The notes under the pieces are model-generated. The model was not told the origin of the DNA, made no database searches, and was given only the letters and a program-made list of their open reading frames with translations. Source: Gammaproteobacteria bacterium (GTDB lineage: Bacteria; Pseudomonadota; Gammaproteobacteria; Natronospirales; REEB76). From it: a stretch of DNA of 64,000 nucleotides. The stretch spans positions 12,065 to 76,064 of the forward strand of contig JAGWOR010000006.1 in NCBI GenBank assembly GCA_028870845.1, read 5' to 3'. Shown here in pieces: positions 28,791 through 32,295 of the stretch (its first letter is position 1; the number at the start of each line of letters is the position of its first letter). The position numbers and the translations under genes were made by a program.

Positions 28791-29324
28791 TCAGATTGCG
28801 GGCGCAGCGGTGTTCACGCCCGCGCATTCATCGCGCTGTTCTTTTTCCAGTTTTCTGCGGATCCGCTGCCGTTTAAGCTCCGAAAGATAGTCCACAAACA
28901 GCTTGCCATCGAGATGATCAATTTCATGCTGGATGCACACCGCCAGCAAACCCTCCGCTGCAAATTCCAGGGGGGTCCCGTCACCATCCAGTGCGCGCAC
29001 CCGGATGCGTTCGGCGCGCTCCACATCCTCGAAAACTCCCGGCACCGACAAGCAGCCTTCCTGCATTTTCTCCTTGCCCTGACTTTCGAGTATTTCCGGA
29101 TTGATAAAGACTTGCGGGTGATCACCATGCTCGGAGACGTCCACCACGATCAGCCGCTGATCGACACCCACCTGGGTGGCAGCCAGGCCGATGCCCGGGG
29201 CCGCGTACATGGTAGCCAACATATCTGCTGCCAATTGCCGGATCTCGGCTGTCACGCCCGCGACTGGCCGGGCACGGATTCGCAGACGGGGGTCTGGATA
29301 ATGCAGGATGGTGAGGGTAGCCAT
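28791..29324 (-). CDS. def: Peptide deformylase
   Basis: From the ATG at 29324: [32 protein letters not shown] and HEIDHLDG. Confidence 0.9.
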
Positions 29325-29391
29325 AATCCAAGACACTCTGGGCGGGTAAGCCCTGGTTTTCAAGGGGAGCCGGTTAAATCCTCATGCACTT

Positions 29392-29419
29392 TTGCATAAA
29401 ATGCTGCTAAAGTTATGAT
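29392..29419 (+). promoter_or_regulatory. Candidate sigma70 promoter TTGCAT-N16-TATGAT immediately upstream of the intron 5' end
   Basis: -35 at 29392-29397 and -10 at 29414-29419. The -10 overlaps IBS2/IBS1, and the predicted start site falls at about the first intron nucleotides. Motif match only. Confidence 0.35.
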
Positions 29420-30041
29420 GCTAGTGCGACGAGAGTCGCGTGGGCAGTTGGCCCCATCCGCAACAGCGGGATAGCCATCTGAGCATGCGGTGCAAGCCGT
29501 GTAGGTAATTGTCTGGCAGCAGCAATTGGCTGTCCAGACCCGCCGTGCTATCGGCGGTAGCTGAGGGAAAGGTGCGTGGTGAGTAATCGCCAGGTGCCAA
29601 GCTTTCCTAAATGTAGCCATCCTGCGGGATACAGTCTGTCCCGCGAGGGATAGTGCTGTGCGACTGGTAGCCACAAGCCGGTCAAGGCGCTAGGCTTCGG
29701 TATGTGGGGAAAGTATTGAACTGCTGTTAAATGTCGTTATAACTAACGGGCCCAAGTGGCTGTTAGGCCCGACCCAAAACGGGAAGTGAACGAGATGCAT
29801 CCTTTAGCATTGGGTGCACATAGCTAAATATAGTTCACCGGCAAAAAGGCAGTCCCCAACAACTGGCGTTACCTATACGGAACTCGGTAAAAAAAAATGC
29901 TGAGGGTAATCCGCAGCGCTATTGGCTGGACCGGGTGATCCACCGCTATGGGGAAACCGTCCTGGGTGAGTATGCCGTCAAGGGGGCCCTGGTGACGGAG
30001 CTCACGTTAGCTGGCCCGGCAGGCCTTGAAAAGTGATCTGG

Positions 30042-30050
30042 TGATACAAT
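30042..30050 (+). promoter_or_regulatory. Candidate extended -10 promoter (TGATACAAT) inside the intron, upstream of the small-ORF cassette
   Basis: TGnTACAAT match. TTGAAA at 30026-30031 is too close (13-nt spacer) to be a proper -35. About 155 nt upstream of ORF1. Confidence 0.35.
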
Positions 30051-30206
30051 ATGTTTTATAAAGGCTGGCCCGGCTGAATGCGTAAGTATAAACAGGGCAT
30101 AGTGCATGGCCCTCTGGGGATCTTTCGGTCCCGCAGAGGGACTGAACGGTACTCCGAGCCATGGTCAATCAATGGCCCCGCCGATGGCGGGAATTAGGAG
30201 CGCCAA

Positions 30207-30401
30207 ATGAGGCTAAATAAGGCCCAGCGAGAAACGATGGCGAAAGCGGCGGAAAATATCGGCACACTGTTGATAGGCGCTGTTTTCGTTCAGGAGTTAT
30301 TTGGGAAGAAACCTATTGGGGCATGGTCTGCAGTAATTGGTGTTGGAATGGCGATTATTTCTTATGTTGCAGCAATCTGGTTAAGGAGGAAAGAGTCATG
30401 A
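30207..30401 (+). CDS. Small membrane protein (64 aa, about 2 TM), cargo ORF1 inside intron domain IV
   Basis: AGGAG lies 6 nt before the ATG. Sequence MRLNKAQRETMAKAAENIGTLLIGAVFVQELFGKKPIGAWSAVIGVGMAIISYVAAIWLRRKES. AT-richer than its surroundings. No family recognised. Confidence 0.6.
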   Translation: MRLNKAQRETMAKAAENIGTLLIGAVFVQELFGKKPIGAWSAVIGVGMAIISYVAAIWLRRKES

Positions 30402-30517
30402 GTTTTACTGCACTGACAATATTAGTCGGCTGTCTCGTGATTGCCGGAGCAGTGGTGGTTGACTACCTCTCTCGTCCCCATGGGCACAAAGAGCAAAACG
30501 AACGGCACCAGCATTAA
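30398..30517 (+). CDS. Small membrane protein (39 aa, 1 TM), cargo ORF2, translationally coupled to ORF1
   Basis: AAGGAGGA lies 7 nt before the ATG at 30398, and an ATGA overlap joins it to the ORF1 stop. Sequence MSFTALTILVGCLVIAGAVVVDYLSRPHGHKEQNERHQH. Confidence 0.55.
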   Translation: MSFTALTILVGCLVIAGAVVVDYLSRPHGHKEQNERHQH

Positions 30518-30934
30518 ACAGACCGTTTCGTAATCAAAACAAACCCGGCCGCCGAAAGCGGCCGGGTTCTTATGAAGGGTTTATGGCTGTTTTCGGCCAG
30601 TCGAACCCCAATCCGGCGCCATCGGAAGATCATGGGGGAGGCTAACCCCTTTGATCCGGCTTGGACTGCATACTTTGAGGCCCGTAATGGGGCGAATATG
30701 CAAAGGGTTCTGGCCCACCGGCCCAGGCACCTGTACCTTTGGAAACGGCAGGCGGGGCGATGCCCACAATGTCGGGCCCTGATCACTCAGGCGACCGGCT
30801 GGCACCGACACCACCTGCTGCCCAAGGGCCAGATGGGCAGGGAGGCATTGGCCAATCAATGCCTTCTCCACCCCAACTGTCACAGGCAATGGCATATACT
30901 TACGCGAGAAAGCTGCGGTATAACCTTAAGTTAG
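30518..30934 (+). pseudogene. Remnant of the group II intron reverse transcriptase/maturase (C-terminal DNA-binding/HNH endonuclease tail only)
   Basis: The open frame reads ...KGLWLFSASRTPIRRHRKIMGEANPFDPAWTAYFEAR...CPQCRALITQATGWHRHHLLPKGQMG...LLHPNCHRQWH, typical of the extreme C-terminus of an intron-encoded protein. No RT motifs occur anywhere upstream. The stop is 20 nt before domain V. Confidence 0.8.
30542..30573 (+). terminator. Hairpin terminator after the cassette
   Basis: AACCCGGCCGC-CGAAA-GCGGCCGGGTT (11-bp stem) followed by CTTAT. The U-tract is weak. Confidence 0.55.
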
Positions 30935-30953
30935 GTTATGCTTAGAGCGGCTT

Positions 30954-31028
30954 GAGCCGGATGCGGGGTAACCCGCATGTCCGGTTCTTAGGGGGGAGGG
31001 CAGCCATGAGGATCCCCTCCTACCCGAC
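30954..31028 (+). ncRNA. Group II intron domains V and VI
   Basis: DV is GAGCCGGATGCGGGGTAACCCGCATGTCCGGTTC (34 nt), with the AGC triad, a GUAA tetraloop and a 2-nt GU bulge on the 3' strand. DV folds exactly as the canonical structure. In DVI, GGAGGG pairs with CCCTCC and there is a single bulged A 6 nt before the 3' end. Confidence 0.9.
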
Positions 31029-31128
31029 TTAACAAGTTGCCCGGCAGCTCCGCCATCACAGGAGACCCGCCACCGCGGGAGGGCCTGGAAACCGTGGGGA
31101 TTTGTCAGGCGAGTCGTGGAGAGCTCCA

Positions 31129-32295
31129 ATGAAAGATTATAACGCGACCCGCTGCTTCACCGCCCTGTGCTTGGCAGGCATGCTGGCGGCTTGCGCCAGC
31201 GCGCCGAAAAAGCCGCAACCTGCTCCAGCAGCGCCGCCGCCTCCGGCACCCGCTCCGCAGGCCCAAGTCCAGCCTGCCCCGCCTCCACCACCGCCAGTGA
31301 TCCTGCCGCAGGCGCCCAAAACCTACGTGGTCAAAAAGGGCGACACTTTGTGGGGCATTGCTTCCATGTATCTCAAGGATCCCTGGCGTTGGCCAGACAT
31401 CTGGTACGCCAATCCAGCCATTAAAAACCCGCATCTGATTTACCCGGGAGACCAGTTCATATTGGGCTATATCAACGGCCGGCCGACCATCACGGTTGTA
31501 CGTAACGGAAAAGTTGTGAATGAAGCGGTAGCCGCACCGAGTCTGCCGGTGGAAACGCTCAAGCCTGAGATTCGCATCACTCCCATCATTCAGGCAATTC
31601 CTACCATACCCTTAAACGCTATCCGGCCTTTCCTAAGCGGCACCCGCGTGGTCAGCAAGGATGAGCTGGAAAATGCCGGTTACTTGTTGCAGGCCATCGA
31701 TGGTCGTCCGATTATGGGGGTCGGTAACGATGTGTATGCTCGTGGCCTGAAACGCGCCGATGGCGACCGCTATAACCTCTTCCGGCTGGGTCAGAAGTAC
31801 GTGGATCCGGAATCCGGTGACACCCTGGGCTACCAGGCCACCTACATCGGGGACGGCTCGGTGGTGCGTTGGGGTGATCCGGCAAAAGTCCTGCTTACCG
31901 CCACCACCCAGGAAGCCATGCCTGGTGACCGGTTCCTGCCGGTGGTGGCCGAAAAGCTCAATCAGGATTTCCTGCCGCATCCGCCTGTAAAACAGGTCAA
32001 GGGCGACATCATCGCCGTGCTGGGGGGAGTTGCCGAAATCGGTCAGTATCAGGTGGTGGTACTGGATCGGGGCACCAATGAGGGTCTCGACTCTGGCACG
32101 GTGCTGGGAATCTACGGACGCAAGAAGAAAGTCAGTGATCCCTATGCATTCGACGGCTTGAGCGGCTCGGTGTACCTACCGGGTGAGCGTGAGGGCATAC
32201 TGCTGGTGTTTCGCGCCTATCCCAAGGTTAGTTACGGACTGGTGATGGAAGCCACGCAAGAGATTCATCTTCTGGACGCGGTCAAGAATCCATAA
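31129..32295 (+). CDS. LysM peptidoglycan-binding lipoprotein (TsaP-like by domain and synteny)
   Basis: Lipobox LAGMLAAC, a Pro/Ala-rich linker, and LysM (YVVKKGDTLWGIASMYLKDPWRWPDIW..NP.I.NPHLIYPGD). Its position between def and dprA matches Pseudomonas PA0020. Confidence 0.75.
   Translation: MKDYNATRCFTALCLAGMLAACASAPKKPQPAPAAPPPPAPAPQAQVQPAPPPPPPVILPQAPKTYVVKKGDTLWGIASMYLKDPWRWPDIWYANPAIKNPHLIYPGDQFILGYINGRPTITVVRNGKVVNEAVAAPSLPVETLKPEIRITPIIQAIPTIPLNAIRPFLSGTRVVSKDELENAGYLLQAIDGRPIMGVGNDVYARGLKRADGDRYNLFRLGQKYVDPESGDTLGYQATYIGDGSVVRWGDPAKVLLTATTQEAMPGDRFLPVVAEKLNQDFLPHPPVKQVKGDIIAVLGGVAEIGQYQVVVLDRGTNEGLDSGTVLGIYGRKKKVSDPYAFDGLSGSVYLPGEREGILLVFRAYPKVSYGLVMEATQEIHLLDAVKNP

Follow-up and report, generated by a model that had tools for sequence, protein, structure and literature searches.

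A group II intron in the def/lysM-dprA intergenic region

The window analysed here, a 64-kb stretch of DNA from a gammaproteobacterial draft assembly (G000, 87.6% complete), carries a genuine group II intron at 29424-31028 on the forward strand (Table 1). An earlier note on this DNA had proposed such an intron; Rfam matches to domain I and to domains V-VI, together with empty sites in relatives, bear it out, and every sequence element that the note listed lies at the coordinates it gave. The termini, GTGCG (29424-29428) and AC (31027-31028), agree with the GUGYG/AY rule. Both Rfam matches cover the full model: RF02012 (group-II-D1D4-7) at 29539-29689, with 94.6 bits and an E-value of 2e-19, and RF00029 (domains V-VI) at 30952-31028, with 64.5 bits and an E-value of 2e-11. 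The 34-nt domain V carries the AGC triad and a 2-nt bulge. A branch A bulges from domain VI, and domain I offers two 6-bp EBS/IBS pairings with the 5' exon.

Table 1. Features of the intron, its foreign interior and its flanks (window coordinates)
Feature	Position	Strand	Basis or remark
Putative sigma-70-like promoter, TTTGCA-17-TATGAT	29391..29419	+	consensus scan; conservation
5' exon target: IBS2 AGTTAT 29411-29416, IBS1 ATGCTA 29418-29423	29411..29423	+	complementary to EBS2/EBS1
Domain I, complete, GUGCG start	29424..29890	+	RF02012; homology to the G000:C22 copy
EBS2 ATAACT 29739-29744; EBS1 TAGCAT 29805-29810	within domain I	+	pairing with IBS2/IBS1
3' end of domain I, family-conserved GGAACnCGGTAA	up to 29890	+	
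Six-A filler, left junction	29891..29896	+	three-way junction alignment
Foreign 675-nt cassette, intron-sense orientation	29897..30571	+	identity to non-intron contigs
Upstream-ORF remnant, last ~46 codons	to 30036	+	inside cassette
Extended -10-like TGATACAAT	30042-30050	+	inside cassette
Cassette leader	30060-30206	+	inside cassette
ORF1, 64 aa, hydrophobic	30207..30401	+	homologues keep frame
ORF2, 39 aa, hydrophobic; ATGA overlap with ORF1	30398..30517	+	present after ORF1 elsewhere
Intrinsic-terminator hairpin AAACCCGGCCGC-CGA-AAGCGGCCGGGTT, then CTT	30541..30571	+	donor homology stops in U-tract
IEP remnant, 120-codon open frame	30572..30934	+	Pfam HNH; homology to P0001
Domain IV 3' strand and linker to domain V	30935..30953	+	conserved with full-length copy
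Domain V, 34 nt, AGC triad, GUAA loop, 2-nt bulge	30954..30987	+	RF00029 alignment
Domain VI, bulged branch A 31022, 3' end ...CCCGAC	30990..31028	+	RF00029; empty-site junction 31028/31029
3' exon start TTA	31029..31031	+	same in 3' exon of full-length copy

A second copy of the intron, full-length at 2513 nt, occurs on another contig of the same genome (G000:C22:26209-28721) and encodes an intron-encoded protein (IEP) with RVT_N, RVT_1, GIIM and HNH domains. Homology between the two copies begins exactly at intron nucleotide 1, and their domains I (nt 1-467) are 83.6% identical with only 1-2-nt indels. In the C22 copy, EBS1 reads AACTGG, sits at the same register within a 9-nt loop and pairs with that copy's own IBS1, CCAGTT; the stem closing the loop shows compensatory changes between the copies. 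The EBS/IBS assignment of the earlier note is right, and EBS1 and IBS1 covary between the two introns.

The note had placed a precise insertion at 29423/29424 and 31028/31029, in the conserved block between def and lysM-dprA, and had suggested a comparison of orthologous loci. When this was done, the empty site was found in six related published genomes (G005, G015, G018, G010, G016 and G004), so that the unoccupied homing site and the precise insertion can be set side by side. In all six, the left and right flanks abut or lie no more than 2 nt from each other, the left one ending at window position 29423 (29421 in G015) and the right one starting at 31029 (31030 in G010 and G004). Since the flanks are joined at 29423/31029, the insertion boundaries are exact. 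The IBS target is unchanged in the empty sites of two of these genomes (L006 and L008), while each of the remaining four differs by one base from the target AGTTATGATGCTA followed by T. Exact empty sites, homology from nucleotide 1 and EBS1/IBS1 covariation together put the intron beyond chance.

The insertion point coincides with a promoter-like block whose sequence, CCTCATGCACTTTTGCAYAAAATGCTGCTAAAGTTATGATGC, is invariant across the six related genomes while the intergenic DNA next to it varies. Consensus match and conservation suggest that the block at 29391..29419 functions as a promoter. Its -10 box overlaps IBS2/IBS1 and its predicted start falls on the first nucleotides of the intron; transcription from it would begin within the intron and lack the 5' exon. 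As the intron separates the -10 box from the start site, transcription probably leaves out the 5' exon. This is a clear case of an intron that landed in that interval of a conserved core promoter-like block, and the landing site probably makes it impossible for the intron ever to splice out. The lysM-dprA-smg-topA genes are cut off from the conserved upstream block by the 1.6-kb insertion. A replacement promoter for lysM was sought downstream of the cassette terminator, and no sigma-70-like site of at least 8/12 was found from there to the lysM ATG.

Missing domains and a foreign interior

The earlier note had implied a whole, readable ribozyme, and this expectation fails. The copy has lost domains II and III, the 5' part of domain IV and about 445 codons of the RT/maturase; it retains domain I (nt 1-467) and, at the 3' end, the HNH tail of the IEP followed by the domain IV 3' strand, domain V and domain VI. 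The covariance scan that the note had called for does return RF02012 and RF00029, as described above, and a model of domains II-III finds nothing in the window. That model, R1, was built from nine family sequences, the C22 copy among them; it scores held-out relatives at 114-166 bits and the C22 copy, as a training sequence, at 132 bits, and it gives zero matches over the 64-kb window at E<=10. The motifs of domain II, J2-3 and domain III, conserved in nine family members, are likewise absent from the window. The note had said beforehand that its reading would be refuted if domains I-III did not fold into a group II consensus, and domains II and III do not. The intron therefore departs from the six-domain fold, and equally from the complete ribozyme that would mark an intron without an IEP as competent to splice.

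Of the intron-encoded RT/maturase, only an HNH tail is left. The last 116 of the 120 codons of the remnant match a D/En (HNH) tail (Pfam HNH, E 3.5e-5); nothing remains of the RT and maturase domains. The remnant is 72% identical, gap-free, to residues 447-562 of the 562-aa IEP P0001, encoded in the same genome, which is its nearest full-length protein; a closer parent IEP was sought and none nearer was found, and an exact look-up of the remnant returned no record. A best full-length match of only 72% indicates that the parent lineage is unsampled. Descent of the window copy from the C22 copy by deletion is ruled out by the divergence of the common IEP tail (dS ~1.7, dN/dS 0.13). The chimeric derivative is single-copy in the assembly. 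Metagenome contigs were searched for the EBS1 hairpin specific to the window copy, as a mark of the intact parent, and for the exact left junction pattern, with 0 matches each. At 87.6% completeness, the assembly may lack a helper or parent copy that is present in the genome.

As to class, the base 5' of EBS1 is U and does not pair with the exon +1 T in either copy, which speaks against IIA, and an En+ IEP rules out classes C-F (PMC4424553). RF02012 also hits M. acetivorans and B. thetaiotaomicron, and a literature link from this model to a structural class was not found. The lineage is probably an HNH-endonuclease-bearing (En+), IIB-like one that Rfam models as D1-D4-7.

The middle 681 nt (29891-30571) consist of six A's and a 675-nt cassette, neither of which is intron sequence. 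The cassette shares 97.9% identity with L115-L118 and 99.0-99.3% with L119/L120, all of them metagenome contigs, where it lies 3' of hicA-hicB and a 114-aa ORF, outside any intron. From 30060 on, its identity to L102-L104 and L107 is 96.9%; there, lexA and hipBA flank it. Core genes around the cassette in a related genome share only 73-79% identity with their G000 counterparts. Judged from sequence, the middle of the intron is foreign in origin. Its interpretation as diverged domains II-IV was rejected, given 98-99% identity to non-intron DNA and no score with the domain II-III model. The six A's (29891..29896) have no counterpart in the intron family or in the donor cassette. At the other end, donor homology breaks off inside the terminator U-tract, and the donor loci stay mutually homologous beyond it. 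Capture of the transcript alone, as suggested by an edge of L102 homology near the transcription start, was discarded, as the L115 match runs 163 nt further upstream.

Elsewhere, mosaic islands that also contain IS fragments and toxin-antitoxin genes house the cassette, in all in at least five different contexts, which implies that it recombines often. ORF1 has homologues of 64 aa (95% identity) and 71 aa (56% identity) that keep the frame, and a 39-aa ORF follows it in every other cassette context; the C-terminal HQH of ORF2 is conserved. No significant Pfam, PHROG or NCBIfam match was found for ORF1. Family assignments for the two ORFs were dropped, the candidates being sub-threshold (19 bits for the geobacillin-26 C-terminus, for which the cut-off is 40, and E 0.09 for holin phrog_20). 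The leader is predicted to be structured: an alifold of three distinct sequences is conserved with almost no covariation, and there is no Rfam match at E<=1. The terminator hairpin was found by the scan on the opposite strand too. Most likely, the cassette is self-contained, with two genes for small membrane proteins and a promoter-like element and terminator of its own. Such an accessory unit has reached a core-genome locus inside an intron shell.

Present state and origin of the chimera

The explanation that best fits the present state, and in which we place high confidence, is that of a retrohomed intron that is now a gutted copy with a cassette inside and most likely neither splices nor moves. 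An En+, IIB-like intron would have retrohomed into the top strand of the intergenic region after recognising AGTTAT-G-ATGCTA, followed by T, via EBS2, EBS1 and a presumed EBS3. Its interior is lost, and the six A's and the 675-nt accessory cassette from outside the intron stand in its place. Domain III is a catalytic effector and domain II makes tertiary contacts. Lacking the former, the contacts of the latter and its own maturase, and with the 5' exon bypassed, the intron has little prospect of splicing or mobility. The element is chimeric and non-autonomous, and very probably a non-splicing relic. In vitro, a reduced form of domains II and III, or their supply in trans, can be enough, so that residual 5' hydrolysis or trans-assisted splicing is conceivable here. 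The present effects of the element are most likely those of a 1.6-kb insertion, in that it sets lysM-dprA-smg-topA apart from a promoter-like block and brings in a two-gene unit. It is very improbable that the element still works, splicing and perhaps moving with the C22 maturase/RT in trans as bacterial ORF-less introns do. In favour of this, both splice sites and domains I, V and VI have survived intact, and the genome also encodes a related IEP; bacterial ORF-less introns usually co-reside with related IEP-encoding ones (PMC4424553). Against this, domains II and III are missing, the C22 lineage has long been separate (dS ~1.7; the tails are 72% identical in amino acids), transcription probably misses the 5' exon, an intrinsic terminator lies inside the intron, and the derivative is single in the genome, its junction not having been found in metagenome contigs.

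An RNA-level origin is compatible with a gutted copy and concerns how that copy arose. A single retrohoming event, in which template switching by the intron RT built the chimera, has slightly less than an even chance in our estimation. A reverse-spliced intron RNA would have been broken in J1/2 and in the IEP ORF. The intron RT would have copied the 3' fragment (target-primed reverse transcription on nuclease-damaged RNA), then jumped to the 3' end of the terminated cassette mRNA from a host transcription unit, and finally to the domain I fragment at its oligoadenylated 3' end, this fragment being still joined to 5' exon DNA. Such a course would account for a foreign piece that stops in the U-tract of its own terminator and lies in sense orientation, and for a domain I fragment whose end coincides exactly with the DI/DII boundary and precedes six sense-strand A's. 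One event would also account for perfect EBS/IBS pairing and exact boundaries despite the absence of domains II and III. Non-templated addition by LtrA reportedly gives T's, not A's, on the top strand (PMC3280974; 10.1101/2021.05.13.443781), so the A-run is better explained as the tail of an acceptor RNA. However, some of the A's could be parental, as relatives carry GGAAAACCCG at that point; the assembled 87.6% of G000 holds no further copy of the cassette to serve as mRNA source; hairpins are also hot spots of illegitimate recombination at the DNA level; the junction signatures were spotted after the fact; and no natural bacterial precedent appears in the literature looked through. To see in the chimera a natural fossil of template switching in vivo, carried out by a group II intron RT, is a tentative reading, just short of an even bet. 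The competing account, for which the chances likewise fall a little below one half, is that an intact intron came first and had its interior swapped in situ, through illegitimate or microhomology recombination or through insertion and deletions, the replacing DNA coming from a variable accessory island. Rearrangement of DNA is generally the commoner process, the cassette resides in mosaic islands and often recombines, and the captured piece is no tidy transcript, as it takes in 46 upstream-ORF codons and a promoter-like element. Yet two independent events and two non-homologous junctions would be required, and nothing in such a course explains a junction in a U-tract or an A-run at the DI/DII boundary. 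Two junctions that resemble RNA 3' ends make in vivo mRNA capture by a group II RT directly testable.

Comparison with known introns and chimeras

The closest known systems are the mobile RT-X-D-En introns of IIB type, including the C22 copy and relatives in Spongiibacter, Halomonas, Photorhabdus, Xenorhabdus, Duganella and Cupriavidus. In common with them, the window intron has GUGCG/AC ends, EBS1/EBS2-IBS1/IBS2 pairings, domains V-VI, an HNH tail, a D1-D4-7 domain I and a site-specific insertion; unlike them, it has foreign DNA in place of domains II-III, the 5' part of domain IV, RT and maturase. As a very probably inactive intergenic relic near important genes and a source of structural variation, it resembles the fragmented, RmInt1-related FRE652 of Sinorhizobium (PMC4181065). 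Remnants of the FRE652 type reportedly decay through loss of a terminus, typically the 3' end (PMC4181065), whereas the window intron keeps both termini and splice sites and has a foreign transcription unit as its interior. Bacterial group II decay described so far is loss of ends, and an interior swapped between perfect splice sites with target pairing is rarely documented.

Like ORF-less introns (PMC4424553), the window intron has no functional IEP and shares its genome with a related IEP-encoding intron. Known bacterial ORF-less introns apparently keep a six-domain ribozyme and still splice (PMC4424553), and the window intron, unlike them, is without domains II and III. It is also like introns with cargo in domain IV, in that foreign coding sequence stands in the usual place of the RT ORF. 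Engineered cargo has been carried in domain IV of Ll.LtrB. In fungi, LAGLIDADG-encoding introns carry a non-RT gene there (PMC4424553). The ribozyme of such introns is whole, whereas the cargo in the window is unrelated to mobility and came at the cost of domains II-III.

A last parallel is with template-switch chimeras. The U6-L1 chimeras of mammals are template-switch retrocopies made by non-LTR RTs. Group II RTs, for their part, switch templates end-to-end in vitro (PMC3280974). The window intron would share with these the sense joining of unrelated RNAs at their 3' ends, with few or no junction bases in common, a reading that comes from two junctions. Should RNA capture prove wrong, it would be an ordinary dead intron with an unusual damage pattern. 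If true, RNA capture would provide a route for introns to move host genes and would make the element a bacterial equivalent of L1-mediated chimeric retrocopies.

The intron and its insertion site

The 1605 nt between def and lysM-dprA are confirmed as a genuine group II intron insertion with precise bounds, and the intron is a gutted, non-autonomous and, as judged from its sequence, very probably non-splicing chimera. The 5′ end, the EBS/IBS pairs and domains V and VI reported in the earlier note were each found in place, and the covariance-model scan that it had proposed returned matches for domain I and for domains V-VI (see table). Its interpretation therefore stands for a genuine, precisely bounded intron but not for a complete ribozyme, since domains II and III have been lost.

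Features of the intron and its surroundings (window positions)
Feature	Position	Strand	Basis
IBS2 AGTTAT	29411-29416	+	sequence reading
IBS1 ATGCTA, flush with junction	29418-29423	+	sequence reading
5′ GTGCG	29424	+	sequence reading
RF02012 (group-II-D1D4-7), 94.6 bits, full model length	29539-29689		Rfam covariance model
EBS2 ATAACT	29739-29744	+	sequence reading
EBS1 TAGCAT	29805-29810	+	sequence reading
Foreign cassette, 675 nt	29897-30571		
Leader of cassette ORF1	30060-30206		
IEP-related frame with HNH motif	30572-30934		
RF00029 (domains V-VI), 64.5 bits, full model length	30952-31028		Rfam covariance model
Domain V, 34 nt	30954-30987	+	sequence reading
Domain VI, bulged A; 3′ end AC	31022; 31028	+	sequence reading
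Promoter-like TTTGCA-17-TATGAT	29391-29419	intron/lysM strand	consensus scan
Promoter-like TGGACA-17-GACAAT in domain I, directed at def	29508-29536	-	
lysM 5′ leader	31029-31129		

In a search with window positions 28800-31700, most of 40 related genomes proved to have the def and lysM flanks. For genomes of the same genus, the match on the left stops no more than a few bases from query position 624 (window 29423), and that on the right starts at about 2230 (window 31029). The two matches are directly adjacent or separated by up to 2 nt in G005, G018, G015, G010, G004 and G016, the six genomes on which the boundary claim rests and none of which is flagged unpublished; G007, G001, G011 and G017 show a like pattern but are so flagged and were not relied on. 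The six empty sites align collinearly through the junction with the window minus 29424-31028, which makes the 1605 nt an insertion. Thus, the orthologue comparison suggested earlier recovered the empty site and ruled out the ancestral alternative. In G016, one of the genomes with an empty site, a contig terminates in a same-family DV-DVI that is 88% identical to the 3′ end of the window intron (C37:21254-21374; L018 2257-2333).

The target is a block of ~60 nt, with CCTCATGCACTTTTGCAYAAAATGCTGCTAAAGTTATGATGCTA and TTAAMAAGTTGCCCGGCA on either side of the insertion point, that hardly varies among six related genomes, unlike the remainder of the 200-nt intergenic region. The previous description of the site as an unusual, core-genome promoter region is a fair one. 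The block contains a promoter-like sequence on the intron/lysM strand (see table), whose -10 box overlaps IBS2/IBS1 and leaves 4 nt before the intron start. If this is the lysM-dprA promoter, as consensus and conservation would suggest, the intron would separate the -10 box from the start site, so that transcripts would start in the first intron nucleotides, without IBS1/IBS2, and would cross domain I and the cassette to reach the cassette terminator. No σ70-like site of at least 8/12 was found from that terminator to the lysM ATG (31130). The antisense promoter-like site in domain I might now contribute to def transcription. The lysM leader contains blocks common to the six related genomes (TTAAMAAGTTGCCCGGCA, then CCCGCCRC..CGCGG..GAGGGCCTG.AAACCGTGGGGA..TGTCAGGCGAGTCGTGGAGA) and is possibly a structured 5′ UTR.

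The second intron copy and the missing parts

Exactly two group II introns are present in the assembly of G000, the window's own genome (2.42 Mb in 78 contigs, with 87.6% completeness). The second is full-length (2513 nt, C22:26209-28721, minus strand), lies 18 nt past the stop codon of a co-oriented semialdehyde-dehydrogenase gene, and encodes a 562-aa intron-encoded protein (IEP), P0001, with RVT_N, RVT_1, GIIM and HNH domains. Homology between the two copies starts at intron nucleotide 1, with none earlier. Their EBS1 hairpins are wholly different in sequence but preserved in form when aligned: stem UGCAUCC/GGGUGCA with loop UUUAGCAUU in the window, and CAUGCCG/CGGCAUG with loop UUAACUGGU in C22. 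In each, loop positions 3-8 pair with the copy's own 5′ exon (UAGCAU with ATGCTA, and AACUGG with CCAGTT, respectively), giving the EBS/IBS assignment direct comparative support. EBS2/IBS2 is almost common to both (ATAACT/AGTTAT in the window, TAACT/AGTTA in C22), and both 3′ exons start with TTA.

The window intron aligns to the C22 copy only at nucleotides 1-467 (83.6%), 1160-1261 (74%) and 1313-1605 (82%). A family alignment of the stretch between the Rfam domain I match and the IEP start took in the C22 copy plus eight relatives of other genera (IEPs 51-57% identical, RF02012 in all). Strongly conserved motifs follow GGAACnCGGTAAG in this family: a domain II stem CCCG...CGGG, GCGGGTAnAGGAG, GAGAAAGCGAATGCC..CTGTAATGG..GGATAGGG and GAAAG..GCAGACTTC..CTGG. 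The window retains GGAACTCGGTAA and then none of these motifs. A DII-DIII covariance model (alignment A1, model R1), trained on nine sequences that included the C22 copy and left out the window, reached 166, 156 and 114 bits with three relatives kept out of the training, and 132 bits with C22, itself a training sequence; it found no match at E<=10 in the whole 64-kb window. The only IEP-related frame in the window intron aligns gap-free over its last 116 residues with P0001 447-562, at 72% identity. Therefore, domain I, the D/En tail, the 3′ strand of domain IV and domains V/VI have been kept, while domains II/III, 5′ domain IV and ~445 RT/maturase codons have been lost. The frame of the remnant is undisrupted, which would fit a recent inactivation. 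For the shared tail, dN/dS is 0.13 and dS about 1.7, and the two introns have therefore long been separated, diverging while functional; no IEP closer than P0001 to the remnant was found in a collection of 5.8 billion proteins.

An En+ IEP rules out classes C-F (PMC4424553). Class IIA is disfavoured because in neither copy can exon position +1 pair with the base on the 5′ side of EBS1. RF02012 also matches control genomes of Bacteroides thetaiotaomicron and Methanosarcina acetivorans, and the latter carries chloroplast-like CL1 introns. Together, these features would point to class IIB, possibly CL1. A related full-length intron of Piscinibacter sakaiensis (NZ_BBYR01000068.1) carries a tRNA (RF00005, 72.6 bits; L029 1371-1441) between domain III and the IEP start.

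The foreign cassette and its junctions

The cassette, in sense orientation to the intron, shares 97.9% identity with metagenome contigs L115-L118 and 99.0-99.3% with L119 and L120, where it lies outside any intron, downstream of hicA, hicB and a 114-aa ORF whose N-terminus resembles an IS3 OrfA fragment. Its parts are the final 46 codons of the 114-aa ORF, an extended -10-like TGATACAAT, a ~150-nt leader, ORF1 (64 aa) and ORF2 (39 aa) coupled via an ATGA overlap, and an intrinsic terminator. Both ORFs are probably real genes, because their frames and lengths are retained in 56%-identical homologues, and domain and family profile searches gave no assignable match for either. The portion from 30060 on has 96.9%-identical counterparts between lexA and hipBA, in several metagenomes and in another gammaproteobacterial MAG; more diverged versions occur on L108 and in G001 (C101, between ampD and an IS605-type tnpB), the unpublished genome that is the one source of the latter context. 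The G000 lexA locus (contig C58) lacks the cassette, and its flanking genes share only 73-79% identity with their counterparts in the lexA-context MAG; the cassette, at 97%, is therefore horizontally mobile accessory DNA. A second copy was found neither in the G000 assembly nor in 64 of the 65 other genomes searched from the order.

At least five genomic contexts were seen for the cassette, whose two ORFs would encode small membrane proteins, each context beside toxin-antitoxin genes or IS fragments: lexA/cassette/hipBA (L102-L104, L107), hicAB/114 aa/cassette (L115-L118), ampD..tnpB (L017, from G001), L108 and L120. Upstream breakpoints vary by context (window equivalents <=29897, 29994, 30060 and ~30066), and on L017 and L108 the cassette is bounded by an inverted repeat, GTTAAGGTGTTGA ... 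TCAACACTTTAAC. The ORF1 leader (L102 3853-4000, L108 ~92-222, L017 ~1795-1945) is the part best conserved between contexts, with GCATGGCCCTCTGGGGATCTTT invariant. Rfam has no match for this leader, which could act as an sRNA or in cis as a regulatory RNA, covariation being uninformative with 3 distinct sequences. A dispersed repeat of ~35-90 nt (L115 645-785 and G000 contigs C24, C11, C36, C72, C60, C23 and C22) suggests a REP/MITE-like family, and that the donor-type organism and G000 are close relatives. Finally, G000:C64:199-365, at a contig end, matches the IS3-OrfA-like 5′ part of the 114-aa ORF at 94% identity before diverging, and may be the G000 counterpart of the donor island, split by assembly.

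At the left junction, the intron runs through ...GGAACTCGGTAA to 29890, followed by AAAAAA (29891-29896), unlike either junction partner, and then by the donor match, starting ATGCTGAGGG... at 29897. Mapped on the R1 structure, the intron breaks off at the first nucleotide of domain II, in J1/2. At the right junction, the donor match stops at ...GCGGCCGGGTTCTT (30571), within the U-tract of the cassette terminator; mutual homology of donor contexts L102 and L115 goes on past the equivalent point. Another 5-11 unassigned nt precede IEP-tail homology, which begins at ~30576-30583.

Origin of the chimera

Two origins appear about equally probable. One is a single event of RT template switching at the RNA level, an activity of group II RTs that is proposed to aid cDNA synthesis over damaged templates (10.1101/2021.05.13.443781; PMC3280974). 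Reverse-spliced intron RNA would have been cut in J1/2 and within the ORF; the RT would have copied the 3′ intron fragment, jumped to the 3′ end of a terminated cassette transcript, and moved on to that of the domain I fragment, still attached to 5′ exon DNA. Both acceptor ends would then look as such jumps should leave them, one being the U-tract of a terminator and the other an oligo(A) tail like those that bacteria add to RNA decay intermediates. Non-templated addition by LtrA places A's on the cDNA, i.e., T's on the top strand (PMC3280974), so the sense-strand A-run is better matched by a tail on the acceptor RNA. One event would also account for flawless EBS/IBS pairs and exact ends despite the missing domains II/III.

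The other origin is insertion of an intact intron and its later illegitimate replacement, at the DNA level, from a mosaic, IS-rich island. The donor island is clearly subject to frequent recombination, illegitimate events have hot spots at hairpins, and the donor is absent from the G000 assembly. Moreover, the A-run could be partly native to an unsampled parent intron, as relatives show GGAAAACCCG, and the RNA-type signatures of the junctions were noticed only after the fact.

No description was found in the literature of an intron that had kept both splice sites intact while a foreign transcription unit took the place of its interior. Relics of bacterial introns, and introns without an ORF, are already known (PMC4181065, PMC4424553), and the main value of the chimera lies in its being a possible, testable record of in vivo mRNA capture by a group II RT.
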